Position numbers and translations under genes: made by a program | The notes under the pieces: model-generated | The model's input: the letters and a program-made list of their open reading frames with translations, nothing else | The model's database searches: none | Told to the model about the DNA's origin: nothing | NCBI GenBank assembly: GCA_900544985.1 | Contig: UQXK01000001.1 | Span: 13,459-77,458 of the forward strand | Length of the DNA: 64,000 nt | DNA from: an uncultured Eubacteriales bacterium | GTDB lineage: Bacteria; Bacillota; Clostridia; Oscillospirales; CAG-272 | Direction of reading: 5' to 3' | Shown: piece after piece, positions 8,625 through 64,000 of the stretch | Position numbering within the stretch: the first letter of the stretch is position 1 | Layout: every line of letters starts with the position of its first letter

Positions 8625-8640
8625 TATGTATATACCTCCT

Positions 8641-20469: not shown

Positions 20470-20524
20470 GGTATCTCCTCCTTTTATTGTGATTTGTTAG
20501 CTTTCTGTTGGCGTACAGATGGCT

Positions 20525-20545
20525 AAATCCAAGTAGCCGCAATGC
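20525..20545. repeat. 21-nt exact direct repeat, copy in the transporter 5' leader
   Basis: AAATCCAAGTAGCCGCAATGC, identical to 20313-20333. In the mRNA sense its 5' end forms the 3' arm of a leader hairpin GUCGCAAUG-N10-CAUUGCGGC. Confidence 0.95.
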
Positions 20546-20581
20546 AAGGAGCAACATTGCGACAAATACCTCCTCCCGCGC

Positions 20582-20612
20582 ATAAAAATACCGCCCGGCT
20601 ATTGCCGGACGG
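20582..20612 (-). terminator. Intrinsic terminator between the late-regulator gene and the transporter operon
   Basis: The minus strand reads CCGTCCGGC-aata-GCCGGGCGG followed by TATTTTTAT. This is a 9-bp stem with one G-U pair. Confidence 0.6.
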
Positions 20613-20673
20613 TTGCTTGATAGAATTTTACGATAGTATTATAACACATACAGTCGGGACATTTGGGACAACT

Positions 20674-21084
20674 TTATTTTTTACCTTTTTCTGAACGATT
20701 CAAAAAACGATAGCACGCTTTTTTTACACTGTCATCGGTATTTCCGCCTCCGATAGACAACGCAATTTGATTCCATGTCATTAAATCTATAAATCTGTAT
20801 GACAATATCAATCGCATTTGATAGTCATCCACTGAGCTTATGTAAGCGTCAATATTTTTGCGTTCTGATATGTATTTTATCTGCTCGTTCTTGATTCTAT
20901 CTTTGAGTTCTACAATTAAAGGAACAAGTTCTTCAATTATATTCTTTGACGAAGACCCGCGAGGCATGCCACTGATATTCATTCCACCTGGTTCTAATTT
21001 TGATTCAAGATCCGCCAGCCTTAAACTATCTCTTTCTATCAGCTTGTTTAAATAATACAGTTTACTGAGTTCGCGTAATGTCAT
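20674..21084 (-). CDS. Phage late-gene transcriptional regulator (sigma-70 region-4-like; DUF1492/ArpU/RinA-type)
   Basis: MTLRELSKLYYLNKLIERD...DYQMRLILSYRFIDLMTWNQIALSIGGGNTDDSVKKACYRFL is a pattern typical of small Firmicutes phage activators. Likely start is the ATG at 21084. Confidence 0.6.
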   Translation of the reverse strand: MTLRELSKLYYLNKLIERDSLRLADLESKLEPGGMNISGMPRGSSSKNIIEELVPLIVELKDRIKNEQIKYISERKNIDAYISSVDDYQMRLILSYRFIDLMTWNQIALSIGGGNTDDSVKKACYRFLNRSEKGKK

Positions 21085-21493
21085 TATTTTCCTCCTCATC
21101 TATATAGTTTCGACCAAATATGCAATGGAAGTCTGCAATGGTCAAGTTGTATTTTTTCATAGCTATTTTTTGTGTCTCTTTTTGCAGCTCTCTGCATATT
21201 TCAGCATTTTTATGTACGGCATTATCTCCGAAAATATGGCAACTGAAATGGTGAAGATATACCGTCAGACCATATTTTTCGGATTTCTGCCTGTATGGAC
21301 CGAAGAATATATGGTGCTTGTCCAAAGGATCTGTTCCTGTTCCGTATCTGCCGCAGATATAACATCTGCGGCTGTCTTTTTGAATAATACTTTTAGCCAT
21401 TAAAATCTCCAAAATTTTATTATTTATTTGTATTTTGTGTGGATAGATTTTTTTTGCACTCTCAAAATCAACTCGATTAAATCTCTTTTTCAT
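21062..21493 (-). CDS. Cys/His-rich phage protein (HNH-like/zinc-binding), function unknown
   Basis: Contains RRCYICGRYGTGTDPLDKHHIFFGPYRQKSEKYGLTVYLHHFSCHIFGDNAVHKN. The start was trimmed to the ATG at 21493 because the upstream part overlaps a better small gene. Confidence 0.45.
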   Translation of the reverse strand: MKKRFNRVDFESAKKIYPHKIQINNKILEILMAKSIIQKDSRRCYICGRYGTGTDPLDKHHIFFGPYRQKSEKYGLTVYLHHFSCHIFGDNAVHKNAEICRELQKETQKIAMKKYNLTIADFHCIFGRNYIDEEENNDITRTQ

Positions 21494-21653
21494 ACCGCGG
21501 AGTATATTTTTGGCAGTCTCTCGGCTCCCCTCCGCGCATTTTTCCCGTATCGAGTAAATAATGACATACATTTATGCCGAATTTGTCGCTCTTTCCTGCA
21601 TGGCGAAGTTTGCGCCAATAGCGACATCCTCGGCATGTTCCCGGTCGTTTCAT
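21477..21653 (-). CDS. Small Cys-rich phage protein (58 aa)
   Basis: MKRPGTCRGCRYWRKLRHAGKSDKFGINVCHYLLDTGKMRGGEPRDCQKYTPRYEKEI. The CxxCxYW..C.Y.LDTGK.RG..P..C..Y pattern recurs in Firmicutes prophages. It starts 8 nt after the MTase stop. Confidence 0.45.
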   Translation of the reverse strand: MKRPGTCRGCRYWRKLRHAGKSDKFGINVCHYLLDTGKMRGGEPRDCQKYTPRYEKEI

Positions 21654-45733: not shown

Positions 45734-45914
45734 AAAAAGCACGGCATTGCCGTGCTTTTTTGTATATGCATTAGATGTTGGGGCTATCCGCCCCAAACCC
45801 GGACACAAGGGACTTTTCGAGAAAAGTTTCTTGGAACTTCAAAAGCTTCGCCAAAGTAAATTGGTGTGCTCGGTGTGAAGTTCTTTGGCTTACCTTTCTT
45901 TCAAGAAAGGTAAG
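45734..45914 (-). repeat. REP/MITE-like composite element, copy A (inverted orientation), includes terminator hairpin
   Basis: Contains the terminator AAAAAAGCACGGCATTGCCGTGCTTTTTT (45734-45762). Also has the reverse complement of the core GAAGCTTTTGA.GTTCCAAG.AACTTTTCTCGAAAAGTCCCTTGTGTCCGGGTTTGGGGCGG, and the end hairpin CTTACCTTTCTT-tca-AAGAAAGGTAAG (45888-45914). Confidence 0.85.
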
Positions 45915-49613: not shown

Positions 49614-49797
49614 ACACACCTTTCTTTCGGAGAAAGGTGACAGGAGAACTTTGCTCAAACACCCCACTTAATTTTTGCGAAGCTTTTGAGGTTCCAAGGG
49701 ACTTTTCCCGAAAAGTCCCTTGTGTCGGGGTTTGGGGCGACGCCCCGACTGATAATGCGCACGAAAAAACGCGGAGAAATCCGCGTTTTTTATTTTG
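49614..49797 (+). repeat. REP/MITE-like composite element, copy B
   Basis: End hairpin CACCTTTCT-ttcgg-AGAAAGGTG and core GAAGCTTTTGAGGTTCCAAGGGACTTTTCCCGAAAAGTCCCTTGTGTCGGGGTTTGGGGCGACGCCCC (49679-49750). Terminator AAAAAACGCGGAGAAATCCGCGTTTTTT (49764-49795). Confidence 0.85.
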
Positions 49798-50019
49798 TCA
49801 GGATATGTTGGAACTGCGTGAGGGGGCCTTGCTTCAAGAGGCTTTTTGTAAAAAGCCCCTTGAAAATCCGCAAAAACTTTCCTCGGCTACACCACTTCAT
49901 TTTAATGAAGCTTTTGAGATTCCAAAGGACTTTTCTCGAAAAGTCCCTTGTGTCAGGGTTTGGGGCAGACGCCCCAACTGTTAACGCACACAAAAAGCAC
50001 GGCATTGCCGTGCTTTTTA
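49798..50019 (+). repeat. REP/MITE-like element, linker module plus copy C
   Basis: Linker GTTGGAACTGCGT..GGCTTTTTGTAAAAAGCC..AAAACTTTCC, and core GAAGCTTTTGAGATTCCAAAGGACTTTTCTCGAAAAGTCCCTTGTGTCAGGGTTTGGGGCAGACGCCCC (49908-49980). The same terminator as copy A, GCACGGCATTGCCGTGC (49992-50019), abuts the stop of the gene at 50022. Confidence 0.85.
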
Positions 50020-50892: not shown

Positions 50893-51058
50893 AGAAGATG
50901 GACATAAGAACTTTGCTCAAACACAAAACTTTATTTTGCGAAGCTTTTGAGGTTCCAAAGGACTTTTCTCGAAAAGTCCCTTGTGCCGGGGTTTGGGGCG
51001 GAAGACCCAACTGACAACGCACACGAAAAAACGCGGAGAAATCCGCGTTTTTTATTTG
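50893..51058 (+). repeat. REP/MITE-like composite element, copy D
   Basis: AAGAACTTTGCTCAAACAC, followed by the core GAAGCTTTTGAGGTTCCAAAGGACTTTTCTCGAAAAGTCCCTTGTGCCGGGGTTTGGGGCGG (50939-51012). The terminator is identical to copy B (51025-51056). Confidence 0.85.
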
Positions 51059-51175
51059 TCAAAAAATGTTGGAACTGCGTTCCAAACCTTGCTTTAAGGG
51101 ACTTTTGAAAAAGTCCCTTAAAAATCCTCAAAACTTTCCCACCGAATATACCACTTTATTTTGGCAAAAATTTTA
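51059..51175 (+). repeat. REP/MITE-like element, linker module only (truncated next unit)
   Basis: GTTGGAACTGCGT..GGGACTTTTGAAAAAGTCCC..AAAACTTTCCC..CCACTTTATTTTGGC parallels 49806-49915 but stops where a core would start. Confidence 0.75.
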
Positions 51176-51324
51176 TATTTTATTGAGATAATTTTATATC
51201 TGCTACGACAAAAATATGAAAGCATACAGGAAAAAGCGCGAAAAGCTGCACGCGCTTTTTACGGGGGGGGGAGATGAGGTTCGAACATTTTCCCCGAGAA
51301 ATGCTTTCATGAATATTCATAAAC

Positions 51325-51355
51325 AAAAAGAACGTCAATAAAAGGCGTTCTTTTT
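51325..51355. terminator. Bidirectional intrinsic terminator
   Basis: AAAAA-GAACG-N11-CGTTC-TTTTT directly after the stop of the minus-strand ORF at 51362. Confidence 0.5.
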
Positions 51356-51361
51356 GCGGAT

Positions 51362-51826
51362 TTATCTGTAATATACGTAGTATGCTATGATTGTCCTGAT
51401 TTTTCCGTCGTGCATAAGGTCGGGTGCGGTCAGTATCGCCCCTTCCAGACTCATAAGCTCGGACGCTTGAAGTTCGGATATTTTCGCTTTGAATATGTGC
51501 TCTCCGCCGGCGCTTACCGTCATTATGCCGTCGCGGATTATAAAATCGCCGTCGCGCCCGATTATTATATCGGTGTCTCCTATCCTTTCGCTTACATATC
51601 TTATTCTGTGTTTCGATATTTTTTCCGCCATTTTTATGCGGAAGGAAACTTTGTCTTCCAATTTTTTCTTTTTAAAAAGTCCCAAATCAAAGCTCCTTTT
51701 TGCGGTATTTTTTTTGGCGCGGATATTTTTTATCGCGCCTTTATGTATATAATATAACAGATTTAAAAGTGAAAATCTATATATTCCGGTAAATATGTGT
51801 GCTTTTTTGAGCGTTTGCTCTTCCAA
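51362..51826 (-). CDS. Hypothetical protein (start uncertain; possibly 51631)
   Basis: 154-aa ORF. The C-terminal ~90 aa (MAEKISKHRIRYVSERIGDTDIIIGRDGDFIIRDGIMTVSAGGEHIFKAKISELQ..) look like a small beta-rich domain. No family recognised. Confidence 0.35.
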   Translation of the reverse strand: MEEQTLKKAHIFTGIYRFSLLNLLYYIHKGAIKNIRAKKNTAKRSFDLGLFKKKKLEDKVSFRIKMAEKISKHRIRYVSERIGDTDIIIGRDGDFIIRDGIMTVSAGGEHIFKAKISELQASELMSLEGAILTAPDLMHDGKIRTIIAYYVYYR

Positions 51827-51843
51827 TTATTATGTTAGTATGG

Positions 51844-51937
51844 TATAATAATCCCACAAATGCGAAGCGTTTGTGTTTTGCCATACAAAAAACAAGTACA
51901 AGCTTCAAAGGGATATAGCCTATCTGAAAATTTATGA
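51844..51937 (+). repeat. Tandem ~94-bp unit 1: extended -10 promoter plus hairpin/U-tract mini-module
   Basis: TGgTATAAT (51841-51849), then AATCCCACAAATGCGAAGCGTTTGTGTTTTGC. The 38-nt segment 51844-51881 is identical to 51938-51975. Confidence 0.85.
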
Positions 51938-52032
51938 TATAATAATCCCACAAATGCGAAGCGTTTGTGTTTTGCTTTATGAAAACCTGACGCAAAACCG
52001 AAAATGGATATAGATTTTATCAAGTTTTATGA
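51938..52032 (+). repeat. Tandem ~94-bp unit 2: extended -10 promoter plus hairpin/U-tract mini-module
   Basis: TGaTATAAT (51935-51943) followed by the identical CACAAA-tgcgaagcg-TTTGTG hairpin and TTTT. A third TGaTATAAT at 52030-52038 lacks the hairpin and leads into yfhO. Confidence 0.85.
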
Positions 52033-52111
52033 TATAATAAAAAAGTCTTAACGCACTTTTATAGTGCAGTATAAAAACAACGAAGTTAAATTTTTAATTT
52101 GGAGGAAACCG

Positions 52112-55100
52112 ATGAACAAGGATAGTATTATTCTTTCTCCTCTCGAAAAGGAAGAGAATACCGTTTTAAAACGCATAAAGCGCTTTTTCGGAAGAATAAA
52201 AACGAGCGAATATCTCTACCTTATCGCGGCATTTTTGCTGCCGTTTACGATAATGCTCGGAATATATGCGTGCATGGGCGTACACCCGTTCGGAAACAAT
52301 ACCGTGCTGATGCTCGATTTGCAGGCGCAGTACATCTATTATTATGAAGAAATACGCTCGCTTTTGACAGAGGGCGGCAGCTTCCTTTATTCATGGAAAC
52401 GCACGCTGGGCGGCGAGTTTATGGGTATTATTGCATATTACGGCGCAAGCCTCTTTAATCTTCTTTTCGTTGTTTTTCCGAAGAGCATGATAGCCGACGC
52501 GATGATGTTCATAAACCTTATGAAGATAGGTTCTATGGGACTTACTTTCGGTATTTATATCCATAAAACGCGTCATCCGGGAGAGATGAAAACGCTTGCC
52601 GTATCGGTAATGTATGCGCTTTGTGCGTATTCGGTCGTTCAGTCGATGAACCCGATGTGGCTGGATGCGCTCGTGTTCCTGCCGCTTCTTATGCTCGGTC
52701 TGGAACGTCTTATAAAAGAGAAAAAGATGATTCTTTACACGGTCATGCTTACTCTTATATTTATAGCAAACTACTATATCGGATATATGACGGGAATCTT
52801 CACGTTTATATATTTCCTCTATTACTATTTTTCAAACCGTTCCGAACTTATAGAGATGTATCCTCCAAAGGCAAAAGGGAATATATTCTCCCGTTTCTTC
52901 TCGATGCACGGCACGAGAACGTTTGCAAGATTTGCATTCGGAACGCTCGTAGCGCTTATGATAGCGTCGTTTATGCTTATTGCGGCGCTTTATTCGCTCT
53001 CATTCGGAAAGAATAATTTCCAACAGACAAACTGGACTTTTGCACTCCGTTTTGACTTTTTGGAGATAATATATAAGATGTTCATCGGCTCGTACGACAC
53101 GGTAAAACCGAACGGACTGCCTATGATTTACAGCGGAATGCTGGCGCTTATATGTCTTCCCGTATTCTACATGGCGCCGGGCGTAAAGCCTGCCAAAAAG
53201 ATCGGAGCGACTCTCGTTCTTCTCGCGCTCGTACTCAGCTTTATGATAAATCCCGTCGACCTTGTATGGCACGGTTTCAATCTTCCCAACTGGCTTAATT
53301 ACAGATATTCTTTCTTCTTCTCGTTTATGGCGGTGTCTATGACCGCGGACGCGCTCTGCGACATAAAAAAGATAAAGACGACGAGTATTCTCGGCGTGGG
53401 CGGAGTCCTTCTTGTTATCACCGCGATAATACAGAGAATGAAATTCCCGATAAACCCCGAAACGACGGGAGCGGAATATGCGAAGGCGAGCACAAAGACG
53501 CTCACTTTTGCGCTTGTAGCCGTACTTCTCATAGTTGCGTATATGATAATAATCTATCTTGTCTCTCATGAGAAAACGGAGAATGTCGGAGCTTTCGTGC
53601 TTGCCGCCGTCGTCTGCGTGGAGATGTTCGCCGGAGGGCTTATGAATCTGAGCGACGCGACGATGACAGACTCCGGTTCGGTACAATACGGCAGTTTTGT
53701 AGACAGCAAAGGACGTGAGGATTATACGGGATATAATTCCTCTATAAACAGAATAAAAGATGTTGTAAACGAAGTCCTTGAAAACGATAAATCATTTTAT
53801 CGCATGGAGAGCAAGGTATACCGCCGTGCGGGAGGCGAAAACGAGTGCATGGCTTTCGGTTTTAACGGAATATCCCATTCCACATCGACGCTCAATGCTT
53901 CGGTAATAAAACTGATGAACAATCTCGGATATACTTCGATATCGCATTATACTCAATACCGCGGAGGCACACCCGTTTCCGATGCCCTCCTCGGAATAAA
54001 GTATGTGATAACAAAAGACGAGCTTCTCGATCCCAATTTCTATACGTTGTATGCAAAACAGCAGGAGCATTACGATTTTGTGGCATCTTCGAGTACGATA
54101 TATGCCATGCAGAATATGAAAGCGCTCCCGATCGCTTACGGCGTAAGCAAAAATGCGATAACGCTTTTGGAAGATAAAGCACAGCCGCTTTTCCCGACGG
54201 GACTTGATACGCAGAACGAAATGATAGAGGCTTTCCTCTCCGAGACAGCTTACAACGGAACTATATTTAAGAAGATAGCCTGCTATCCTCATGCGACGGA
54301 TGTTACGACAGGCGCGTTCAGCCAGCCCTGCTACTATTTTGACGAGAACGGAGAACGTCAGACGCACTATGTTCCTTATACGAGCTATGTTGCAAAAGGC
54401 GATGATCCCAAGATAACATTCTCTTTCCACGCAAAGTCTGATTCTGCAATATATGCGCGTTTTGCGACGGACAACTTCGGCAAGGGCTGCGACGTATTCG
54501 TAAACGGCGTTCTCCTTTGCGAGAACTACGGAACGGGCGGCGGCAACGGCATACTTAATATAGGAACTTTCCATACGGGAGATTCCGTAGAGGTCGTTCT
54601 CGAACTTAACGACGCGTTCTATATTTCCCAGGAATCGGGTTCCAACGTTCATTTCTACTATATAGATTATGAAGCTGCAAACGAGGCTTTCTCATATCTT
54701 TCAAATGCCGCAATGAATGTTGAAGAGCATACGAATACAAAGATAAAAGGCAATATAACTCTCCCGAAAGGACAGGAGCTTATATTTACGACGATACCGT
54801 ACGACGAAGGCTGGAAGTGCTATATCGACGGAAAGAAAGTCGACGCTGTTAAAGTCATGGGCTCTCTTGTCGGCGTTCCCGCAACGGAAGGGTATCATGA
54901 AGTGGAATTCAGATATATGCCCACATGTTACGTTGTAGGATTTATAGTTTCCGCTCTCGGTGCTCTTATCCTCATTGCCATGATAGTAATACCGATAGTA
55001 AAGAAAAAACGCGCGCCGAAGCTCGCTACGGCAAATCCGTCGGATTCTGATGATGTTGCAAATAACGCTTCGGGCGATGAAATTGTTGATACCGAGATGT

Positions 55101-55315
55101 TCAGGGCATTTGGAATAGGCTATGGAAATAACAGCGCGGAAAATACCGCAAGCACCGAAAATATGGAAGATCTTATTCCGCCCGACGGAGGGGACATAAA
55201 CCAAGGCTCAAAGGGAGATATAGCCGAGGCTTTCAAAGAATCGGCGGTTGATGAAAACGGTGTCTCCAACACGGGAGATTCCGAAAACGGAAAAGATGGC
55301 GCTTCGGAAAAATAA
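52112..55315 (+). CDS. yfhO: YfhO-family polytopic membrane glycosyltransferase-like protein
   Basis: The ATG at 52112 follows GGAGGAAACC. It has many TM helices, the N-terminus YLYLIAAFLLPFTIMLGIYACMGVHPFGNNTVLMLDLQAQYIYYY typical of YfhO, and an acidic low-complexity C-terminal tail. Confidence 0.85.
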   Translation: MNKDSIILSPLEKEENTVLKRIKRFFGRIKTSEYLYLIAAFLLPFTIMLGIYACMGVHPFGNNTVLMLDLQAQYIYYYEEIRSLLTEGGSFLYSWKRTLGGEFMGIIAYYGASLFNLLFVVFPKSMIADAMMFINLMKIGSMGLTFGIYIHKTRHPGEMKTLAVSVMYALCAYSVVQSMNPMWLDALVFLPLLMLGLERLIKEKKMILYTVMLTLIFIANYYIGYMTGIFTFIYFLYYYFSNRSELIEMYPPKAKGNIFSRFFSMHGTRTFARFAFGTLVALMIASFMLIAALYSLSFGKNNFQQTNWTFALRFDFLEIIYKMFIGSYDTVKPNGLPMIYSGMLALICLPVFYMAPGVKPAKKIGATLVLLALVLSFMINPVDLVWHGFNLPNWLNYRYSFFFSFMAVSMTADALCDIKKIKTTSILGVGGVLLVITAIIQRMKFPINPETTGAEYAKASTKTLTFALVAVLLIVAYMIIIYLVSHEKTENVGAFVLAAVVCVEMFAGGLMNLSDATMTDSGSVQYGSFVDSKGREDYTGYNSSINRIKDVVNEVLENDKSFYRMESKVYRRAGGENECMAFGFNGISHSTSTLNASVIKLMNNLGYTSISHYTQYRGGTPVSDALLGIKYVITKDELLDPNFYTLYAKQQEHYDFVASSSTIYAMQNMKALPIAYGVSKNAITLLEDKAQPLFPTGLDTQNEMIEAFLSETAYNGTIFKKIACYPHATDVTTGAFSQPCYYFDENGERQTHYVPYTSYVAKGDDPKITFSFHAKSDSAIYARFATDNFGKGCDVFVNGVLLCENYGTGGGNGILNIGTFHTGDSVEVVLELNDAFYISQESGSNVHFYYIDYEAANEAFSYLSNAAMNVEEHTNTKIKGNITLPKGQELIFTTIPYDEGWKCYIDGKKVDAVKVMGSLVGVPATEGYHEVEFRYMPTCYVVGFIVSALGALILIAMIVIPIVKKKRAPKLATANPSDSDDVANNASGDEIVDTEMFRAFGIGYGNNSAENTASTENMEDLIPPDGGDINQGSKGDIAEAFKESAVDENGVSNTGDSENGKDGASEK

Positions 55316-55326
55316 TAAATACAAAA

Positions 55327-55351
55327 ATGCTGTGCATTGCACGGCATTTTT
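55327..55351 (+). terminator. Intrinsic terminator after yfhO
   Basis: ATGCTGTGC-att-GCACGGCAT followed by a T-run. Confidence 0.7.
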
Positions 55352-55625
55352 GACTTATACACGGCGGCGGGAAAATAAAAGACTTCCGGTGCCGGTTGTA
55401 AAATGCCGAAAGCTTTCCCGAGAAAATCCGCCTGCGCTTTAAAACGTCGGAATATGATAAAGCGCGTAGATTTGATTTTATGGCAACTTTATTTTTGTGA
55501 TTAAAAGCTTGCGGTATCAACAGAAAAAATCTGTTTTGATATCACGATAAACTTTGTTTGTCTTAAACACAATATATTGCGGTTTTAGACGATTTGATTT
55601 TTGATTTGCGGAGGATATATAAAAT

Positions 55626-57359
55626 ATGGCGTTTGACGCGGGATTTACGCGCGCTATGTGCGCTGAGCTCGAAGCGGAGCTTTCGGGCGCAAAGGTAGAA
55701 AGGGTTACCGAGCCGTCGCGCGACGAGATAGTTATACAATTTTACAAGGCGGGGAAAACAAAAAGGCTGTTTTTTTCCGCAAACCCGTCAAGGGCAAGAG
55801 TCTGCATAACGGAGCTGACATTTGAAAATCCCAAAGTTTCCCCCATGTTTTGTATGCTCTTGCGCAAACATCTTGCGGGGGCTTCTGTCAGTTCCGTGCG
55901 CCAAAACGGATTTGAACGCGCGATAGAGATAGACTTTGCCGCCTTTGACGATATGGGATTTTCAGTTACTCGAACGCTCGTTGCGGAGATAATGGGGAAG
56001 TGCAGTAACATCATGTTGCTCGACGATAAGAGGCGCATTATGGGCGTTTTGCGCTCTGTGGACTTCACTACAAGCGCCAAAAGGCAGGTCTTGCCCGGAA
56101 TGACGTATGAAGCGCCACCCGCGCAGGACAAAATATTGCCCGAAAATGAAAATTTCGAAGATTTTTCATCGCGTGCGAAAGCTTTTGATGAAAGCAAGAG
56201 CGCGGAGAGCTTTTTGCTTTCGACATATATAGGCTTGTCTCCGCTCGTTTCAAGGGAGATCGCGTTTCGCGCAGGCGCTCTCGGAGTCGAAATGAGAAAT
56301 GCCTATATCGGAAAATTATACGATTCGTTCGCGGTATATATATCTTCTTTGAAGCCGCCGTATGTTCCCACGCTTATTTCGGACGGAAAAAATCCCGTCG
56401 AATATTGCTTTTCCGATATTTTTCAGTACGGGGAATCATTAAACAAAACGCATTTCCCGTCGCTGTCCTCTTTGCTAGACGCTTTCTACGGAGAGCGGGA
56501 TAAGATAGCCATAATAAAGGCGAAAACGCACGATGTTTCCCAAATAGTGCAGAATGCAAAATCAAGATTATCCAAAAAGATAGTTTATATAAAACGCGAT
56601 CTTGCCGAATGCGAGGAGGCGGAAAAATATAAATTATGGGGCGATCTTATAACGTCGTCTCTGTATATGCTGTCGGGAAAAAGCTCTTATTGCGAGGTCA
56701 CGAATTTTTACAGCGACGACATGGAAAAGGTGAAAATACCGCTCGATGTAAAGCTTACGGCGTCCCAGAACGCGGCGAAATATTTTAAAAAGTATACAAA
56801 GTTAAAAAAGGCGAAGGAAATTCTTTCGGGACAGCTTTTATCCGCTTCTTCCGAGATAATGTATCTTGAAACGGTAGAGACGGCGATATCCCTTTCGGAA
56901 AACGAAAACGATATTACGCAGATAAAATCGGAGCTTCAAACGGCGGGATATATTTCGCACACAGTTCAGCAGAATACGAAAAAGCCGCAGAAAAAGCAGG
57001 ATATAGTGCCTCTTAAATTTACAAGTCCGGGAGGGCATACTGTTTTTTGCGGAAAAAACAATATCCAAAACGATTTTATTACGACAAAGCTCGGAAAAAA
57101 ATCCGATTGGTGGTTCCATGTGAAAAACAAGCCGGGTTCTCACGTTTTGCTCGTTTGCGATGACGGAGAAGACCCCAACGCCGGGGAATTTACATTTGCG
57201 GCAAGCACCGCGGCGTACTATTCGAGTCTTCGCGACGGAGAAAACGTGGCGGTTGATTACACGCTTTTGAAAAATGTGAAAAAACCGTCGGGTTCCTCTC
57301 CCGGTCACGTTGTATATTACACAAATTATACGGCTTTTGTAGATCCCAAAAAGCCCTAA
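55626..57359 (+). CDS. rqcH: NFACT-family ribosome quality-control protein (RqcH / FbpA)
   Basis: 577 aa. The N-terminus MAFDAGFTRAMCAELEAELSGAKVERVTEPSRDEIVIQF, a coiled-coil middle region and the C-terminal WWFHVKNKPGSHVLL match the NFACT-N, coiled-coil and NFACT-R architecture. Confidence 0.9.
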   Translation: MAFDAGFTRAMCAELEAELSGAKVERVTEPSRDEIVIQFYKAGKTKRLFFSANPSRARVCITELTFENPKVSPMFCMLLRKHLAGASVSSVRQNGFERAIEIDFAAFDDMGFSVTRTLVAEIMGKCSNIMLLDDKRRIMGVLRSVDFTTSAKRQVLPGMTYEAPPAQDKILPENENFEDFSSRAKAFDESKSAESFLLSTYIGLSPLVSREIAFRAGALGVEMRNAYIGKLYDSFAVYISSLKPPYVPTLISDGKNPVEYCFSDIFQYGESLNKTHFPSLSSLLDAFYGERDKIAIIKAKTHDVSQIVQNAKSRLSKKIVYIKRDLAECEEAEKYKLWGDLITSSLYMLSGKSSYCEVTNFYSDDMEKVKIPLDVKLTASQNAAKYFKKYTKLKKAKEILSGQLLSASSEIMYLETVETAISLSENENDITQIKSELQTAGYISHTVQQNTKKPQKKQDIVPLKFTSPGGHTVFCGKNNIQNDFITTKLGKKSDWWFHVKNKPGSHVLLVCDDGEDPNAGEFTFAASTAAYYSSLRDGENVAVDYTLLKNVKKPSGSSPGHVVYYTNYTAFVDPKKP

Positions 57360-57366
57360 TAAATGA

Positions 57367-57399
57367 AAACCTCCGATGTGATATCACATCGGAGGTTTT
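57367..57399. terminator. Bidirectional terminator between convergent genes
   Basis: Perfect palindrome AAAACCTCCGATGTGAT-ATCACATCGGAGGTTTT. Confidence 0.8.
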
Positions 57400-57408
57400 A
57401 TAATTTTG

Positions 57409-58176
57409 TTATTTGTTTTCGTCGTCGCTTTCTTTTTCTTTCTTTGTCTTTTTTCTGCGCGCCTCGAACGCGAGGGTCATTTCATGAAGATATTCGGAAA
57501 GCGGGCGCTCCGAACGGAACGAAAAGAAGAAATGATGTTTTTGTTTTCTTGCGTCCTGTCTTTGACGTATATTTGCTTTGAGCGTTTCGTATTTTACTAT
57601 GATATCGTTTTCGTCTGCGTATTTTTTGAGCCTTGAAATGATTTGCGCGGAATGGGCGATATCTATTATAAATACGCCGAAGAACATTCCCACAACGAAA
57701 GAGAAGGCGAGATTTCTCGACAGCCATTCGAGCGCATTCAATATGTAGGGATGTATGAGAAAATAATAGAGTGCGCCGAGTAATGCCCAGGCAAGAGAAA
57801 ATTTAGGGCAGATTATTCCCTGGATATTTCCCCATGCGCCGCTGTAATCCCAGAGCCTGACTTTGAATATTTTCAGAGAGATTATACCCGCGATATATTC
57901 TATTGCCGTCATGGATATCGCCATTATGACGAACAGCACAGCCTTGCGGAGCACATCGTTTTCTATTGTCAGGTTTCTTTCTATCGACGCTATGAGGTAT
58001 AGCGCGCAAAGCCCCAGACCGTAAAGCGGTATATACGGTCCTGTGCAGAATCCGGGATTTATCCATTTTCGCTCCGGATTCGCCGATGAAAAGAATCTTC
58101 GGAATATCACTTCGATTATCCAGCCGAGCATAGAGCCTATAAAAAATAAAAAAGCGAGAATCAAAAATAAATTCAT
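57409..58176 (-). CDS. Membrane protein, DUF1113 / putative ABC-transporter type IV (CmpB-like) family
   Basis: MNLFLILAFLFFIGSMLGWIIEVIFRRFF..WINPGFCTGPYIPLYGLG is the signature of this family. It has a basic C-terminal tail. Confidence 0.75.
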   Translation of the reverse strand: MNLFLILAFLFFIGSMLGWIIEVIFRRFFSSANPERKWINPGFCTGPYIPLYGLGLCALYLIASIERNLTIENDVLRKAVLFVIMAISMTAIEYIAGIISLKIFKVRLWDYSGAWGNIQGIICPKFSLAWALLGALYYFLIHPYILNALEWLSRNLAFSFVVGMFFGVFIIDIAHSAQIISRLKKYADENDIIVKYETLKANIRQRQDARKQKHHFFFSFRSERPLSEYLHEMTLAFEARRKKTKKEKESDDENK

Positions 58177-58434
58177 AAAAAATCACCCGTAAATATATTT
58201 TTTATAATTGTTTTTTGTATTTTACCGAAAAATCAGATATGAGAACAAAAACGGGAAACACTGTCGCGTTACAATTATACTGTGAAAAGAAAGCACGTGA
58301 TTGTTATTTGCAAGATGTTTCTTATTAAAATTCTGTTTTTCTATATAATACCACAAGAAAAGGCAAAAATAAAGTCTTTTTCTTTAAAATGCGCACGATA
58401 AAACAGTAAAATAGAACAAATGTTCGAAAAATAG

Positions 58435-58463
58435 TTGACAAAAGAACAATGCTGTGGTATAAT
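58435..58463 (+). promoter_or_regulatory. Consensus sigma-A-type promoter
   Basis: TTGACA (58435-58440), a 17-nt spacer, then TGgTATAAT (58455-58463). Every consensus position is matched. Confidence 0.75.
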
Positions 58464-58469
58464 ATGCTC

Positions 58470-58576
58470 AGGCAAGCGGGGAGGATATGATTATCCCACC
58501 GCTTGTCGTGGTATACTGTTAAACCGCATCGGAATCTGAAACGGGTGCTTCGACGTATAAAAAGCGAAGCTTTTTT
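58470..58576 (+). ncRNA. Candidate ~105-nt terminated leader/small RNA
   Basis: The predicted TSS is about 58470. Hairpin 58473-58505 is CAAGCGG..GGATA-tgat-TATCC..CCGCTTG. The terminator is GCTTCG-N12-CGAAGC followed by TTTTTT (58547-58576). No credible ORF is present. Confidence 0.35.
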
Positions 58577-58667
58577 CTGCGGTATCTGCGGAAAAGTTGC
58601 AATATTGAGCGGCTGTATTTTCCCGTTTGTATTATGAATGTTTCGGATGATAAAGAGAAATCTATAT

Positions 58668-58692
58668 ACCGGCTGTGCCGGTGCGATTTTTT
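58668..58692 (+). terminator. Second intrinsic terminator upstream of cluster 2
   Basis: ACCGGC-tgt-GCCGGT, then gcga, then TTTTTT. Confidence 0.5.
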
Positions 58693-58868
58693 CGGGAGCT
58701 TATATGTTTTTACTTTTTGCAAAGCGGCGGGGCTTTTTCGATAAGACGGTGAAAATCCGCTGTATAACTTGATTTTCAGACAATTTTACGGTAAAAAACG
58801 CTTATTTGATGCGGTATGAATTTGTTATCAAAAATAAAATATAAATTACAAAAAATTTTAAAGGAGGG

Positions 58869-59111
58869 ATTTATACGAATATATATATTTCGGCGACGGA
58901 GGACGATTTTTCCTCCGACGATGTTTGTTATGAAAGGAATGCTCGACGCATATTCTGCCATTGTGAGCACTGCGGCTCTGCAATATATTCTCCGAAGGAC
59001 GCGCTTATAGTCGATGGAAGCGGAGATGTGATACATTTGGAATGTTGGCGCGAATACGCGGAAGAACATATGTTTGATTTTGCACAAAAGGCAACGGAAG
59101 CCGTCGGTTGA
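58869..59111 (+). CDS. Small zinc-ribbon protein ORF lacking a canonical start codon
   Basis: The open frame reads ..NIYISATEDDFSSDDVCYERNARRIFCHCEHCGSAIYSPKDALIVDGSGDVIHLECWREYAEEHMFDFAQKATEAVG. AAAGGAGGG lies at 58861-58868, but only ATT/ATA codons are in frame before the first Cys. Confidence 0.3.
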   Translation: MYTNIYISATEDDFSSDDVCYERNARRIFCHCEHCGSAIYSPKDALIVDGSGDVIHLECWREYAEEHMFDFAQKATEAVG

Positions 59112-59137
59112 AATTTATTGCTTCGTATTTTTGAAAT

Positions 59138-59572
59138 TTGAGAAAAGACAAAAAAATATTTCCGGATGCCGAAGATTTTGCAGAGCGTGCAAAGCGTTAT
59201 TTTAAAGATTGCGACAGCTCGGTAATGTTCTCTCCCTCCTGCGAAAAATGCGCGGAGAAAGAGCGCGGCGCGTGCCTTGACTGCCGAAAAAAGAAAACAA
59301 GACCGTATACGCTTTCGGGTCTTTGCCTTTATCTGGGAATAAGCAAAAGAAAATTCAATCTGCTTAAAAACGACAAAACTTTTTGCGACGCGGTGGAGAT
59401 GGCGATGCTGAAAATAGAAACATATATAGAGGAAAACTGTATGTGCGGAAATTTCAACGGCACGTTCGCTCTTGCGATGCTTAAAGAATATTTCGGATTC
59501 GGAAAGGACAGCGACGAAGAGCATGATATAAATATCACGCTTTTGGGTGAAGTGAAGAAGCTTTCAAAATGA
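59138..59572 (+). CDS. Terminase small subunit
   Basis: 144 aa. PDAEDFAERAKRYFKDCD...RPYTLSGLCLYLGISKRKFNLL...AMLKIETYIEE is a typical TerS (Terminase_4-like) pattern. TTG start; 4-nt overlap with terL. Confidence 0.7.
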   Translation: MRKDKKIFPDAEDFAERAKRYFKDCDSSVMFSPSCEKCAEKERGACLDCRKKKTRPYTLSGLCLYLGISKRKFNLLKNDKTFCDAVEMAMLKIETYIEENCMCGNFNGTFALAMLKEYFGFGKDSDEEHDINITLLGEVKKLSK

Positions 59573-60894
59573 AAAAAATTTCTTTTGATATAGAGCCTTC
59601 GGAAAAGCAGATGGAGTTTTTTATGTCGGAAGCCAGATTTACGGCTTACGGCGGAGCGCGCGGAGGCGGCAAGAGCTGGGCTTTGAGGTATAAGCTGCTT
59701 CTTCTCTGCCTGAATTATCCGGGGATAAGGACGATAATAATACGACGCAGTTACCCCGAACTTTACGAAAACCACGTATTGCCGCTTCTGAAAATATTGG
59801 AGGGAACTTCTCTTGCTTCTTACAGTGAGGAGCATAAGGAATTTAAATTCGTGAACGGTTCGACAATAAAGCTCGGCTATCTTTCAAACGAAAAGGATCT
59901 TCTCAGATATCAGGGGCAGGAGTTCGATATAATAGCGATAGACGAGGCGACGCAGATAGTGGAAAATGCTTTCCGCATTCTTTGCGCGTCTTTGCGAGGA
60001 ACCAACGATTTTCCGAAGCGCGTCTATCTTACATGCAATCCCGGCGGGGTGGGGCACGGTTTTGTAAAGCGGCTTTTTATAGACAGAGCGTACAGAAAAG
60101 GAGAGCGCGCTGAGGACTACCGTTTTATACGCGCTCTCGCATACGACAACAAAGCGCTTCTCGGAAGCGACCCGGGGTATATAGACCGTCTGGAAGCTCT
60201 TCCCGAAAAATTGAGAAAGGCGTGGCTCTACGGGGAGTGGGACGTTTTCGAGGGGCAATTCTTTCCCGAATTCGATGTTTCGGTGCATACTTCGTTCAAC
60301 ATTGAAGTTCCGGAAAATTCGGTAAGATACTGTTCTATGGACTACGGGCTCGATATGCTGGCGTGTCTTTTTATTGCGGTCGATGAAAAAGGTCACGCAT
60401 ATGTGTATGATGAAATATATAAAAGCGACCTTGTCGTGAGCGAGGCGGCAAGGCTGATCAAAGACAAGGCAACGGGAGACATGATATTCATAGCGCCCGC
60501 GGACCTGTGGTCAAGGCAAAAGGACAGCGGAAAGAGCATAGCGGAGCTTTTTTCCGAAAACGGGGTATATCTTACAAAGCTTTTTCCGAACAGGGTATTC
60601 GGCTGGGCGGCGCTGAAAGAGTGGCTGAAAATAGAAAATGACAGCGGAAAACCGCGCATGATAATAGACAGAAAATGCGAAAATATAATACGCACGCTTC
60701 CGCTTCTTATGCATGACAGGAATGTGTGCGACGATGTCGCCGTAAATCCGCACGAGATAACCCATGCGCCCGACGCATTACGATATTTTGCGTCGTACCG
60801 CGCTTCTTTTGCAAAAGAGAGCACACCGCAATATCTTTTCCGAAATGCGGATGCCAAAAAGAAAAATATTCTGACAGGAGGTAATCTTTATTAG
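59569..60894 (+). CDS. Terminase large subunit (PBSX/Terminase_3-type)
   Basis: 441 aa. Walker A in FTAYGGARGGGKSWALRYKLL and Walker B in FDIIAIDEATQ, with a C-terminal nuclease region. Confidence 0.9.
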   Translation: MKKISFDIEPSEKQMEFFMSEARFTAYGGARGGGKSWALRYKLLLLCLNYPGIRTIIIRRSYPELYENHVLPLLKILEGTSLASYSEEHKEFKFVNGSTIKLGYLSNEKDLLRYQGQEFDIIAIDEATQIVENAFRILCASLRGTNDFPKRVYLTCNPGGVGHGFVKRLFIDRAYRKGERAEDYRFIRALAYDNKALLGSDPGYIDRLEALPEKLRKAWLYGEWDVFEGQFFPEFDVSVHTSFNIEVPENSVRYCSMDYGLDMLACLFIAVDEKGHAYVYDEIYKSDLVVSEAARLIKDKATGDMIFIAPADLWSRQKDSGKSIAELFSENGVYLTKLFPNRVFGWAALKEWLKIENDSGKPRMIIDRKCENIIRTLPLLMHDRNVCDDVAVNPHEITHAPDALRYFASYRASFAKESTPQYLFRNADAKKKNILTGGNLY

Positions 60895-60896
60895 AT

Positions 60897-62537
60897 ATGA
60901 ATTTTAAATTTTCCGAAAAGAGAAAAAATATAGACGAACATTTGTTCGATACAATAAAAAGCCGCGAGGATAATATAAAGGAACTTTTTGAAAAATCGGT
61001 TTCTTACAGGAGCGGCGCCGACAAATATTGGCGGAAAATGCGCTCGTATTACGACGGCACGCACGATACCGCAAGGAGAACGGGCGATTTTCTTGCCTTT
61101 GTCAATATTCCGTGGAAGCCCGCGGAGCTTCCCGACGGGTATATGCACGTGGAAAGCCAGGTCTCCCCGAAACTGCCCGATTTTGAATTTTCAGGCAGGA
61201 ACAGCGGAGACACCGACTATGCGAGAGCGCGCGAAAAGATCACAAGGTACATTTTCGATATAAACGATATGGAACGGAAAAATGCGACAAACGAACGCAG
61301 ACTCGGAATTTACGGGAGTGCGGTGTGGAAGCTTTCCGCATATGAGGACGTTTACGGACGCCCGGAGATAATGGTGGAAAATCCGTCTCCCGAAAGTATA
61401 TTTCCCGACCCGTGCGCCTCGAATATAGACGAATGCGAATATATAGGTCACGTTTACAGAATGAGCATTTTCCGTGCGGAGAGGATTTTTGCGGAAGATA
61501 TGAAAAGAAAGGGGATTACCTTCCGTGAGCTTTTGCGCGACGAAAAAGGCAAGAGCCTTTCCGGAGAAGAGGACACCGTAGAAGTGCTCGAATGGTGGTT
61601 CAGACAGCGTTCCGACGGAGAATATATAAACGCAAACGGGGAAAAGGCGTATTATTCGAGAGGAGACATAGCGCTTTCCGTTCTTATATGCGGAAAGGAA
61701 GTAAGATATATCCCAAAATTTTTTACAAAGACGAATTACAATTCTTTTCCGTTTGCGATATATTCGCGCATACCGAAAGACGGCAGTATATGGGGAAAGA
61801 GCGAGCTGGAAGAGATAATTCCTCTTATAGACGCGGCGGACAGACAGCTCGCTTTTGCGCAGTTGAATACGGCGTTTTCCGCAAACGATATAGTCGTATA
61901 TGAGGAGAATGCTTTCTCTCCCGACAGCTACCCCGACAACAGACCCGGTGCTGTGTGGAAGCTCCGTCCGGGAATGATGGACAAGGTTTCACGTCTCGGA
62001 GGGCTTGCGGGCGAGAGTCTTTCTCATTATGAAATCGTCGAAAAGTACAGGACGATGATAAAAGATGTGCTCGGAAACTATGATTATATGCAGGGGGACT
62101 ATTCTACCCGCGTAACTACCGCGACGGGGCTTGCGCTTCTTTCCGATCTTGCGGCAAGCCGTGCGAGCGTAAAGAACGTCTGCAAAAAAGCGGGATTTGC
62201 TTCTTTGTGCCACCTTTGCGATATATTCGCGCTCGAATTTTATACCGATGAGAAGATAGCGCTTATTTTCGACGGGGACGAAAAAGCGGCGGAATATCTT
62301 TCGAAGGTAAGGTCTGCGGATTATATTCCCGAGATAGACGTGAGGGTGAACATAGGCGAAGGCGTCGAAAATTCACGTTCGTTTACCATATCGGCGCTCA
62401 CGTCTCTGATAGACAAAGACGTGAACGAAGAGAACTATCCTCTTGTAAGGGCGTATATAAACGCTGTCGATATCCCCGAAAAAGCGGAGATAATTTCACA
62501 GCTCGATAAAAAATTCGGAGCTTGTGCGGTCCTATAA
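60897..62537 (+). CDS. Portal protein
   Basis: 546 aa located immediately after terL. Size and position are typical of portal proteins, and the conserved central region is portal-like. Confidence 0.8.
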   Translation: MNFKFSEKRKNIDEHLFDTIKSREDNIKELFEKSVSYRSGADKYWRKMRSYYDGTHDTARRTGDFLAFVNIPWKPAELPDGYMHVESQVSPKLPDFEFSGRNSGDTDYARAREKITRYIFDINDMERKNATNERRLGIYGSAVWKLSAYEDVYGRPEIMVENPSPESIFPDPCASNIDECEYIGHVYRMSIFRAERIFAEDMKRKGITFRELLRDEKGKSLSGEEDTVEVLEWWFRQRSDGEYINANGEKAYYSRGDIALSVLICGKEVRYIPKFFTKTNYNSFPFAIYSRIPKDGSIWGKSELEEIIPLIDAADRQLAFAQLNTAFSANDIVVYEENAFSPDSYPDNRPGAVWKLRPGMMDKVSRLGGLAGESLSHYEIVEKYRTMIKDVLGNYDYMQGDYSTRVTTATGLALLSDLAASRASVKNVCKKAGFASLCHLCDIFALEFYTDEKIALIFDGDEKAAEYLSKVRSADYIPEIDVRVNIGEGVENSRSFTISALTSLIDKDVNEENYPLVRAYINAVDIPEKAEIISQLDKKFGACAVL

Positions 62538-62554
62538 CACAGGAGAAAAAATCT

Positions 62555-63301
62555 ATGAACGAGAATAATGAAAAAAATACGGATCTTAAATCCGATGAAA
62601 TAAAAGAACAAAAAACGGAAGAGCTTTTCTTTGATAATTCACATTGCGAAGAGGCTCGCGTTTCCGAAAATGAAGCGGAGCTTACGCATGATGAATCGGA
62701 AATTTCTCAGAGCGGCGAAGAGGTGTCGGCGGAGGAAAAAAATATTTTATCCGTCGAAGATAAAGAAACGTACGGCGCGGCGGCTGACGGAAATGCAAAT
62801 GCGGAATCAGACGAGAACTTGGAAAATTCGTCTTTATCGGAAGAGAAGGATTTTACAGAAGAATTCGAAAACGGTGAATCGGAATCGACTAGTTTGGAAG
62901 AAGAAATCGGAAATGATAAATCGGAAGAAAAGCTTTCCGATACCGAAACGGTTCCCGAATACGAAAACGAAACGCTGTCCGATATTTCAGACGATGAAGA
63001 AGATTTTCGCATTTCCGACGAGGAATTTTCGAGAGCGCTCAAAAATCCGATGTTTCCGATGTTTTCAAGAGGAAGAAACGAGAGCGTGGAGCAGAGCGTC
63101 AGAAATTTTTGCAAGATGATCGCCGCGGGAAAAAATTCTGTTTCCGAAGAGGACAGAATACGTATGACGCCGTATTCCGGTTACGGTGTCGTTTCCGATA
63201 TAGCTCTTTCGGAAAGGCAGAAAAAAATAGCGAGGGAAGCGGGAATGTCGTACAGGGAATACTACGAGATAATAAAGTCGCTTCCCCAAAAATCAAAATA
63301 A
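62555..63301 (+). CDS. Scaffolding protein (highly acidic)
   Basis: ATG at 62555 after AGGAG. It has a long E/D/S-rich region followed by a conserved C-terminus, and lies between the portal and capsid genes. Confidence 0.6.
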   Translation: MNENNEKNTDLKSDEIKEQKTEELFFDNSHCEEARVSENEAELTHDESEISQSGEEVSAEEKNILSVEDKETYGAAADGNANAESDENLENSSLSEEKDFTEEFENGESESTSLEEEIGNDKSEEKLSDTETVPEYENETLSDISDDEEDFRISDEEFSRALKNPMFPMFSRGRNESVEQSVRNFCKMIAAGKNSVSEEDRIRMTPYSGYGVVSDIALSERQKKIAREAGMSYREYYEIIKSLPQKSK

Positions 63302-63318
63302 AAATGGAGGATTTTTAA

Positions 63319-64000
63319 ATGAATGATGTATATACATGGTCGGACGATATGTATCCGATCGTTAAAAAAAGTTTCGAGGAGAGATATTCTTCCCGTATAA
63401 ACGCCATAAGCCGAGTTGCGGGCGTTGTTAAACAGAATGAGCTTACTTATGATATAGAGGGGCTCGGCGGTTACGGTGCGCTTCCCGAATACAGCGCAAA
63501 AAATCTTTCCCGTGCGGACGGCACGAAAGGTTTTATAACAACGGTAACGCCGACAGAGAAGGCGTTAGCTTTCCCCGTATCTTATAAAAATGCCAAAAAC
63601 GATATCGTGGGCGAGGCGGAAAAAACGGGAATCCGTCTTGCGGATTCCGCGTATATGACTGTCCTTTGCGGATTTTATAAAATGTTTGAAAACGCATTTA
63701 CGGCAAAAGGCGCCGACGGTGTTTCATGGGCGTCCGAGGCTCACCCCGTAAATAACGAAAGTACGTCTACTACTTTTTCCAATGTAATAAAAAAGGCGCT
63801 TTCTCTTGACTCTGTTCTTGCGGCGCAAAAGCAGGCGAGCTCCTTTGTCACGAGCGACGGACTTCCTTTCGTTGCGGATTTCGATCTTCTTCTCGTAAGC
63901 CCCGAGCTTGAAGGCAAGGCGCGCGAGATATGCGGTAAAGACGCTTCGCTTTCTCCTGTATCAAACCCCGAAACGGGAATAGGCGCAAATCCCGTTTACG
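63319..64000 (+). CDS. Major capsid protein (partial, runs off window end)
   Basis: My own translation from the ATG at 63319, which follows GGAGG, gives MNDVYTWSDDMYPIVKKSFEERYSSRINAISRVAGVVKQNELTYDIEGLGGYGALPEY... It is stop-free to the window end. The position after the scaffold gene supports the call. Confidence 0.65.
   Translation, partial: MNDVYTWSDDMYPIVKKSFEERYSSRINAISRVAGVVKQNELTYDIEGLGGYGALPEYSAKNLSRADGTKGFITTVTPTEKALAFPVSYKNAKNDIVGEAEKTGIRLADSAYMTVLCGFYKMFENAFTAKGADGVSWASEAHPVNNESTSTTFSNVIKKALSLDSVLAAQKQASSFVTSDGLPFVADFDLLLVSPELEGKAREICGKDASLSPVSNPETGIGANPVY

Follow-up and report, generated by a model that had tools for sequence, protein, structure and literature searches.

The closest described system to the locus analysed here is FpGTA, a podovirus-like gene transfer agent (GTA) of Faecalibacterium prausnitzii (Borodovich et al., Nat Commun 2026, PMC12946183). 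Its main operon, 9.6-10.5 kb long, encodes the small and large terminase subunits (TerS and TerL), portal, scaffold, capsid and nozzle, and its fibre and lysis genes form a second operon 125 kb away; the particles are 40 nm, look tailless and carry ~8.5 kb of random host DNA (PMC12946183). According to the same report, GTA-like packaging of 4-9-kb chromosomal fragments is common in gut Clostridia; several Clostridia show it without a located locus, the locus is known only for Faecalibacterium, and the report is silent on promoters and LexA (PMC12946183). In CcGTA of Caulobacter crescentus, expression depends on activation by GafY and IHF and on antitermination by GafZ, through which RNA polymerase reads past a terminator close to the promoter (Tran and Le 2024, PMC11150451). 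Here we describe the control region, at 58414-58868, of a phage-type head and packaging cassette in 64,000 nucleotides of DNA from an uncultured Eubacteriales bacterium (assembly GCA_900544985.1, contig UQXK01000001.1, positions 13,459 to 77,458; hereafter the window).

We consider it probable that this cassette is a domesticated podovirus-type locus and candidate GTA, inherited vertically and controlled by LexA. From CmpB to pcrA, the host genes on either side, a cluster of phage structural and packaging genes runs without any gene for replication, integration or lysogeny, and the cluster appears to be wired into a host circuit, with putative LexA boxes at a fixed position by the promoter in 26 of 27 related promoters. 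An initial annotation, made from the letters of the window, had offered three alternatives: a domesticated GTA-like locus under a host-type promoter, an antitermination-controlled late operon belonging to a prophage with a distant other end, and a stand-alone small RNA (sRNA) gene. The first is supported by the boundary at pcrA, the conserved chromosomal site, co-divergence with the host gene RqcH and purifying selection.

Promoter P1 and its LexA boxes

Promoter P1 (58435-58463, plus strand), recognised in the initial annotation and present as claimed, reads TTGACA-17-TGgTATAAT: it matches the consensus at 12 of 12 positions, has an extended -10 element and is the sole 12/12 match within 57000-60500 in a promoter scan. 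Transcription is predicted to start at A58470 or G58471. Missed at that first reading were two boxes of LexA (Cheo/SOS) type, which from their sequence we take to be the main regulatory feature. Box 1, GAACAAATGTTC (58414-58425, no strand assigned), is an exact GAAC-N4-GTTC palindrome 9 nt upstream of the -35 hexamer and one of three exact sites in the 64-kb window; GAAC-N4-GTTC is the Firmicute LexA motif (PMC4951493). Box 2, GAACAATGCTGT (58444-58455, likewise without strand), lies inside the P1 spacer and is degenerate, with three mismatches; better copies occur in relatives, for example GAACAAATGTGT or ACAAATGTTC. The box centres are 30 nt apart in the window and 30-31 nt apart overall, about three helical turns, a spacing that would allow cooperative LexA binding.

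The comparison of promoters covered 27 distinct promoter regions upstream of related cassettes, which were aligned. The -35 hexamer TTGACA is kept in 25 of them, the -10 hexamer TATAAT in 26, the TG of the extended -10 in all 27 and the 17-nt spacer in 26. At 9-10 nt upstream of the -35, GAAC-N4-GTTC is exact in 22 promoters and has one mismatch in four more; the sole promoter without box 1 has a one-mismatch box in the spacer instead. A spacer box 2 with at most two mismatches is found in 14 of the 27. The composite of box 1 and a perfect P1 is rare, with five occurrences in 2.9 million IMG/VR contigs, none of which adjoins a cassette of this family. A palindrome beside the promoter, conserved across orthologous promoters, is consistent with membership of a Firmicute LexA regulon.

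P1 looks like an SOS operator-promoter of maximal strength that is held off by LexA, and a maximal promoter shut in this way suits a gene product that burdens or kills the cell. Because conserved LexA operators flank it, P1 would not be constitutive. For the same reason, and because the terminated leader is absent outside the species, the PR'-tR'-like control suggested in the initial annotation is not supported.

A second exact palindrome of LexA type, GAACATTTGTTC (60936-60947), lies 40 nt into the portal gene. It is kept in place in seven related loci (L014, L018, L019, L021, L068, L072 and L073), the portal N-terminus around it being otherwise poorly conserved, and may be an internal operator or roadblock.

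The cassette, its chromosomal site and its inheritance

Pfam and PHROG searches recovered behind P1, on the plus strand, the gene order that had been read from the window by eye. A Zn-ribbon open reading frame (ORF) is followed by TerS (59138-59572; Pfam GP3_package at 1.3e-15, PHROG 606), TerL (59569-60894; Pfam Terminase_6N and Terminase_3, PHROG 979 at 6e-45), a portal of P22/SU10 type (60897-62537), an acidic scaffold-like protein (62522-63301) and the major capsid protein (63319-64000, cut by the window end; PHROG 371 major head protein, with a weak match to Pfam Mu-like_gpT). The scaffold-like protein has no family match in Pfam or PHROG and is named from its position between portal and capsid in a conserved gene order. 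L014 is a metagenome-assembled genome (MAG) of the same species, 94% identical to the window across 51159-64000; its capsid protein has 304 aa, and the capsids of relatives match PF25209. With the window, L014, L072 and L073 make up four strains of the species. Beyond the capsid gene, these three loci encode a ~200-aa adaptor-like protein and then an 801-aa protein, and host pcrA/uvrD lies on the other strand 176 nt past the 801-aa gene. The cassette therefore comprises eight genes (Zn-ribbon, TerS, TerL, portal, scaffold, capsid, adaptor and a protein of 600-800 aa), all intact in the four strains, and P1 and the final stop codon are ~9.1 kb apart.

The neighbouring host genes YfhO, RqcH/NFACT and CmpB/DUF1113 (57409-58176) lie on the minus strand. 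As stated in the initial annotation, no integrase, repressor or replication gene stands between CmpB/DUF1113 and the cluster; the whole cassette of this species contains no integrase, repressor, replication, lysis or fibre gene, no Q-, N- or LoaP-like gene and no match to a PADLOC defence model. The annotation had advised a look beyond 64 kb for tail, lysis and integrase genes, and this yielded tail candidates in the adaptor and the 801-aa protein and no lysis or integrase gene. Its prophage with a distant end is refuted because the cassette ends at host pcrA ~9.1 kb on: there is no far end, no Q-like gene and no complete ordinary prophage downstream. The base composition that it had judged by eye was computed, and GC content is 0.458 in the coding part of the cassette, similar to the 0.443 of the host genes at 52-58 kb and higher than the 0.42 and 0.37 of prophage 1, a full prophage in the same window.

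The distal genes bear on the type of particle. Pfam gave a weak SU10_adaptor match in five of six adaptor homologues, and neither the adaptor nor the 801-aa protein matched PDB sequence profiles. For the 801-aa protein there was no Pfam match, protein-database searches returned near-identical sequences only, and a single-sequence model had a predicted local distance difference test (pLDDT) score of 35, too poor for a fold search. The 600-800-aa protein is a tail or nozzle candidate, and the P22/SU10-type portal together with the weak SU10_adaptor matches points to a short-tailed (podovirus-type) particle.

Homologues of the portal with E < 1e-10 number 372, nearly all in MAGs of Clostridia and many on contigs of 100-680 kb. 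Among about 40 fetched loci, the recurring gene order is Zn-ribbon, TerS, TerL, portal, scaffold, capsid, adaptor and 600-800-aa protein. In the seven annotated relatives, the annotated flanks are host genes in every case and no integrase, replication or lysis gene was found. The cassette sits just downstream of YfhO-(radical SAM)-RqcH in the window and in L014, L018, L019, L068, L069, L052, L040 and L023. Divergence of the cassette proteins parallels that of RqcH: across eight loci, RqcH is 98, 76, 71, 71, 54, 52, 51 and 49% identical to that of the window, and the portal in the same loci 97, 74, 63, 62, 57, 58, 58 and 54%. Between the window and L014, the ratio of nonsynonymous to synonymous substitution rates (dN/dS) is 0.01-0.10 in cassette genes and 0.06-0.07 in host neighbours, at similar dS, and locus GC content follows that of the host genome over a range of 38-64%. 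A search of 50,697 GenBank phages found no close relative, the best portal match being 20% identical and the capsid having none. A phage-like IMG/VR contig, L065, has the same gene order and a portal with 34% identity, pointing to a podophage ancestor of the cassette. Taken together, these comparisons argue for a family that is inherited vertically under purifying selection, as GTAs are.

The same figures bear on whether the cassette could instead be a decaying, functionless prophage remnant whose leader is neutral junk and whose terminators silence the operon. The loss of distal genes from L019 and L068, a first ORF without a canonical start codon here and an insertion in the leader that evolves at about the rate of other intergenic DNA would all be consistent with decay. 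We nevertheless regard a remnant as very unlikely, given a dN/dS as low as that of host neighbours in every cassette gene, eight intact genes in four strains, retention of the site across genomes whose RqcH is merely 49% identical, and a promoter and operator conserved almost base for base.

Equally, a gene set of heads only, found in the same window as a full prophage, invites comparison with a capsid-forming satellite (like the capsid-forming phage-inducible chromosomal islands, cf-PICIs) or another helper-dependent element that takes its tails and lysis functions from a resident phage such as prophage 1, and operon I of the Staphylococcus aureus pathogenicity islands (SaPIs) offers a precedent for a packaging operon controlled by LexA. 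That explanation is highly improbable in our judgement: the annotated loci have no integrase, alpA/stl, primase-replicase or att site, the fixed position and co-divergence with the host oppose mobility, and the adaptor and large distal protein suggest that the particle has a short tail of its own. Identity with a PICI was rejected because integrase, master repressor, primase-replicase (and with it a replicon) and att sites are absent from the annotated loci.

Several local features of the loci were noted. In L068 (13680-16021), the large distal protein gives way to two helix-turn-helix genes and a 524-aa sigma-70-like protein; in L019, adaptor and large protein are missing from 13126 on; and L018 has a HIT-family gene (8473-8979) between scaffold and capsid. 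L020, L069 and L070, which have different upstream neighbours, carry the same gene set after the cassette, at ~15.6-21 kb in each locus, namely an extracytoplasmic function (ECF) sigma factor, two ~200-aa proteins, an MBOAT acyltransferase and a DHHW protein. These genes perhaps form an accessory or regulatory module linked to the cassette. Past pcrA in L072 and L073, the region 19741-21641 holds a VanY-type peptidase and a DUF5131 (phage Gp37/Gp68-like) gene and could be another phage-derived region or a lysis function. On the other side of the cassette, convergent RqcH and CmpB are separated by an ordinary bidirectional terminator, a perfect palindrome of 15 bp flanked by runs of A and T (57366-57399).

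The leader and the first gene

Between the -10 and the first gene lie 24-48 nt in most clades, 93 nt in L018, L019 and L068, and 410-412 nt in this species only. The difference lies in a species-specific, non-coding insertion in the 5' untranslated region (58508-58811, plus strand; the right border is approximate, 58811-58859), ~300-375 nt long and carrying two terminator-like hairpins. By blastn, 58508-58811 has no homologue in loci outside the species, and the flanks match L018, L019 and L068 at 58408-58483, which holds the operator, the promoter and the start of a 5' hairpin, and at 58860-58940, which holds the Shine-Dalgarno (SD) sequence and the 5' end of the Zn-ribbon ORF. Small ORFs in the leader were considered and rejected: indels among the four strains break every one of them, so the insertion is non-coding, in line with the earlier remark that no convincing ORF is present. 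Leader GC content is 0.338. The leader has no second copy in the window or in any locus and thus shows no sign of being a repeated mobile element, and blastn of 58177-59600 against GenBank phages gave no match. Loci L001-L013 and L015-L017, collected through terL, share terL alone and are uninformative for the leader.

The hairpins described in the initial annotation are all present. At 58471-58507 (plus strand), 0-1 nt from the predicted start, an interrupted 5'-terminal hairpin folds with -22.3 kcal/mol (z = -5.3; none of 200 shuffles equally stable). Every helix substitution among the four strains leaves the pairing intact, by a G-U wobble or an exchange of the pair. When the 5' hairpins of seven loci were run through RNAalifold, no usable covariation emerged, the MAFFT alignment being not structure-aware. 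In L018 a stable hairpin stands at the same position with another apical sequence and no terminators, so the hairpin is older than the insertion. Stem-loops at the 5' end protect Firmicute mRNAs, and this one is probably a stabiliser of the mRNA 5' end.

The first of the two terminator-like hairpins, T1 (58547-58576, plus strand), is weak: GCTTCG-N12-CGAAGC-T6, a 6-bp stem with a 12-nt loop and U6. It can be read directly from the sequence and is present in the minimum-energy fold, and it was not called by a terminator scan that permits loops of at most 8 nt. An alternative pairing of the U-tract, UUUUCUGC-N7-GCGGAAAA (58573-58595), competes with T1 and also folds. T2 (58667-58692, plus strand) was called by the scan, with seven pairs, five of them G-C, followed by a U-tract; its stem is kept in the four strains, one C-to-U change giving a G-U pair. 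T2 fits the pattern of an intrinsic terminator (GC stem, 3-8-nt loop, U-tract), from which T1 departs in its 12-nt loop and 6-bp stem. Between hairpin and T1, 58508-58546 shows no substitution in the four strains and one single-base deletion, in L072. Directly upstream of the SD lies an AT-rich block of 60 nt (58791-58850, plus strand) that is identical in the four strains, in a leader that varies around it; a sigma-70-type scan found no promoter with at least 9/12 matches in it.

This arrangement raises the question of conditional antitermination, in which P1 transcripts would stop at T1 or T2 unless RNA polymerase is modified, either by a cis-acting RNA (the 5' hairpin and 58508-58546, put-like) or by a protein, for which the candidates would be the Zn-ribbon product (feed-forward) or a factor of prophage 1 or the host, compare GafZ in CcGTA. 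Two terminator-like hairpins behind a maximal promoter, the structural conservation of the 5' hairpin and the substitution-free segment after it speak for this, as do a terminator-like hairpin directly after P1 in the distant loci L071, L063 and L055 and precedents in GTA clusters (PMC11150451; bioRxiv 10.1101/2024.11.20.624540). We think it unlikely all the same, given that the 5' hairpin predates the terminators, that most clades have no terminators, that T1 is weak and unstable among strains and that the cassette has no Q-, N- or LoaP-like gene. Nor did the leader match a known RNA family (a match to an unrelated family was what the initial annotation had named as counting against its view): Rfam 15 gave no match in the whole window at the gathering score, and an E-value search of 58100-59200 returned chance-level matches only (E at least 0.95). 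A phi29-like pRNA was rejected, TerL being a classical terminase and an Rfam match lacking, and so was a retron or tracrRNA-type RNA, whose partner genes are absent.

The invariant block could also hide a promoter or operator of its own, in which case P1-T1 would be a stand-alone SOS-induced sRNA of ~105 nt and the cassette would be driven by another promoter in 58791-58850. Such an RNA would be structured (z = -3.5 for the fold of 115 nt), and distant loci L055 and L071 do have a second promoter-like site with LexA boxes near the first gene. This alternative, retained from the initial annotation, is in our view quite unlikely: 58700-58860 has no promoter with at least 9/12 matches, the RNA body past the hairpin has no homologue outside the species or match in Rfam, the T1 stem degrades among strains without compensation, and in at least 20 relatives the cassette is driven directly from this P1, across a leader of 24-93 nt.

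We favour the reading that the leader belongs to the control of the cassette. Where box 2 is good, the leader is short (at most 48 nt) in 12 of 13 promoters; where box 2 is poor, it is long or structured in 13 of 14, and the poor-box-2 loci carry long structured leaders or additional LexA boxes. In L071, L063 and L055 the terminator-like hairpin right after P1 is followed by extra LexA boxes at a weaker promoter-like site, and in L046, L047 and L049 the leader is structured, measures 280-440 nt and has extra LexA boxes beside the SD. On our reading of these sequences, lineages that lost operator 2 would have compensated for it downstream, this species by means of terminators acting as an attenuator. 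We have moderate confidence that the terminator-bearing leader is a lineage-specific attenuator of this kind.

The operon's first gene is the Zn-ribbon ORF (CxxC...HxxC), which with its SD, AAAGGAGGG (58860-58868), occupies 58860-59111 on the plus strand. It matches PHROG 4331 at 6.7e-6, and against L014 its dN is 0 at a dS of 0.14; a single-sequence model of the protein (pLDDT 53) was too poor for a fold search. From the upstream stop to CxxC there is no in-frame ATG, GTG or TTG in the window, L014, L072, L073 or L018; other clades all have a canonical start 6-9 nt past the SD.

From the SD onward, 63 nt are identical between the window and L018, despite an identity of only ~75% between their proteins. 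The stretch contains a hairpin, CGGAGGA-N7-TCCTCCG, and the SD is a possible alternative partner for the 3' arm of this hairpin. Together with the lack of a canonical start, this points to initiation at a non-canonical codon (AUU at 58869 or AUA at 58881), to an RNA or DNA element such as a translational switch or pac site, or to both.

Elsewhere in the window, at least four copies of an intergenic repeat of ~90-140 nt, which contains GC-rich hairpins, lie within 6 kb in both orientations (45787-45868, 49660-49768, 49889-49996 and 50927-51029, also ~51933-52040). It resembles a repetitive extragenic palindromic (REP) element or a miniature inverted-repeat transposable element (MITE) and is unrelated to the leader insertion.

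Proposed mechanism and comparison with known systems

In the mechanism that we propose, LexA dimers would hold P1 shut until DNA damage, through RecA-stimulated cleavage of LexA, sets off a burst of transcription from P1, and the 5'-terminal hairpin would stabilise the transcript. In this species only, the insertion would place the weak T1 and the better T2 between P1 and the first gene and serve as an attenuator that damps leaky or basal transcription; because operator 2 is degenerate here, full induction would be needed for enough read-through. The non-canonical start of the first gene would be a further, translational brake. Lysis and fibre functions, if they exist, would be encoded elsewhere, as in operon II of FpGTA.

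A number of points weigh against this reading. Transcription start, termination, LexA binding and particles are all predicted from sequence. Box 1 lies upstream of the -35 and not over it, and box 2 is poor here, so the strength of repression is uncertain; the box motif is moreover the Firmicute consensus, not calibrated on the host's own lexA and recA promoters. The T1 stem loses pairs in L014 and L072 with no compensation. Divergence between the window and L014 is ~7% in the insertion, beside 5.6% in neighbouring intergenic DNA and a proportion of synonymous differences (pS) about twice as high, at 0.06-0.20, and because the insertion diverges about as much as that intergenic DNA, selection on the whole of it is not demonstrated. 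The link between box 2 and leader length comes from only ~3-5 independent clades. Some copies of the cassette are decaying, since L019 lacks the adaptor and the large protein and L068 the large protein. No lysis or fibre gene lies within 10 kb of the cassette in this species. Finally, the likeness to FpGTA is one of gene order and function on paper, and homology to it is not established: five capsids of the cassette family gave no match to the N4-gp56 NCBIfam model at E up to 10, the model being a proxy for the FpGTA capsid (RCH50849.1), which was compared by family name only.

The terminated leader taken alone is a species-level peculiarity, and the weight lies with the family and its SOS switch. 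The cassette family is widespread and chromosomally fixed, and its on-switch can be read from the sequence as a consensus promoter under LexA. If particle production were confirmed, this would be a second podovirus-like GTA lineage; it would provide a testable link from DNA damage (for example by antibiotics or inflammation) to gene exchange in the gut, and a case of one operon with second-layer controls that differ by lineage (a second operator, downstream LexA boxes or terminators). We also put forward, as a tentative and rather doubtful extension, that the cassettes form a previously undescribed family of LexA-triggered podovirus-type GTAs in gut Clostridia, distinct from FpGTA, which could explain GTA-like packaging for which no locus is known, and that the terminator leader is a new, second checkpoint passed only by dedicated antitermination through the 5' hairpin or the Zn-ribbon product.

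Among known systems, the cassette and FpGTA are both chromosomal operons of ~9-10 kb in gut Clostridia, without replication or integration genes; they have the order TerS, TerL, portal, scaffold and capsid in common, and neither main operon includes fibre or lysis genes. FpGTA differs in having ten ORFs and a Prp-like gene between portal and capsid, no Faecalibacterium protein is among the named relatives of the cassette proteins, and particles and DNA packaging have been demonstrated for FpGTA, whereas the cassette is known from genes alone. The likeness to CcGTA lies in promoter-proximal terminators that limit GTA expression and in a regulatory element between -35 and -10. The CcGTA terminator, however, is made up of three 150-bp GC-rich repeats and comes after the first gene, and control there is by dedicated activators, not LexA; GafYZ-like genes are absent here, and terminators in the cassette family are confined to one lineage.

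The comparison also takes in SOS-controlled prophage-like elements and SaPI satellites, which have a LexA-repressed packaging operon I. As in that operon, a Firmicute LexA box would gate genes that start with terminase- and capsid-related functions, but SaPIs are mobile, with integrase, Stl and a replicon, and use a helper capsid, whereas the cassette does not move and brings its own genes for terminase, portal and capsid. The lambda PR'-6S RNA-tR' region and HK022 put resemble the locus in a strong promoter, a short structured RNA and terminators before head genes. Unlike lambda PR'-tR', the cassette has no Q gene, carries LexA operators on its promoter and is not part of a complete prophage, and its terminated leader, unlike those of lambda and HK022, is lineage-specific and matches no RNA family. 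Set beside these systems, the cassette is best placed among the loci for domesticated phage-like particles or GTAs, a known kind of which it is a new member and may represent a new family.

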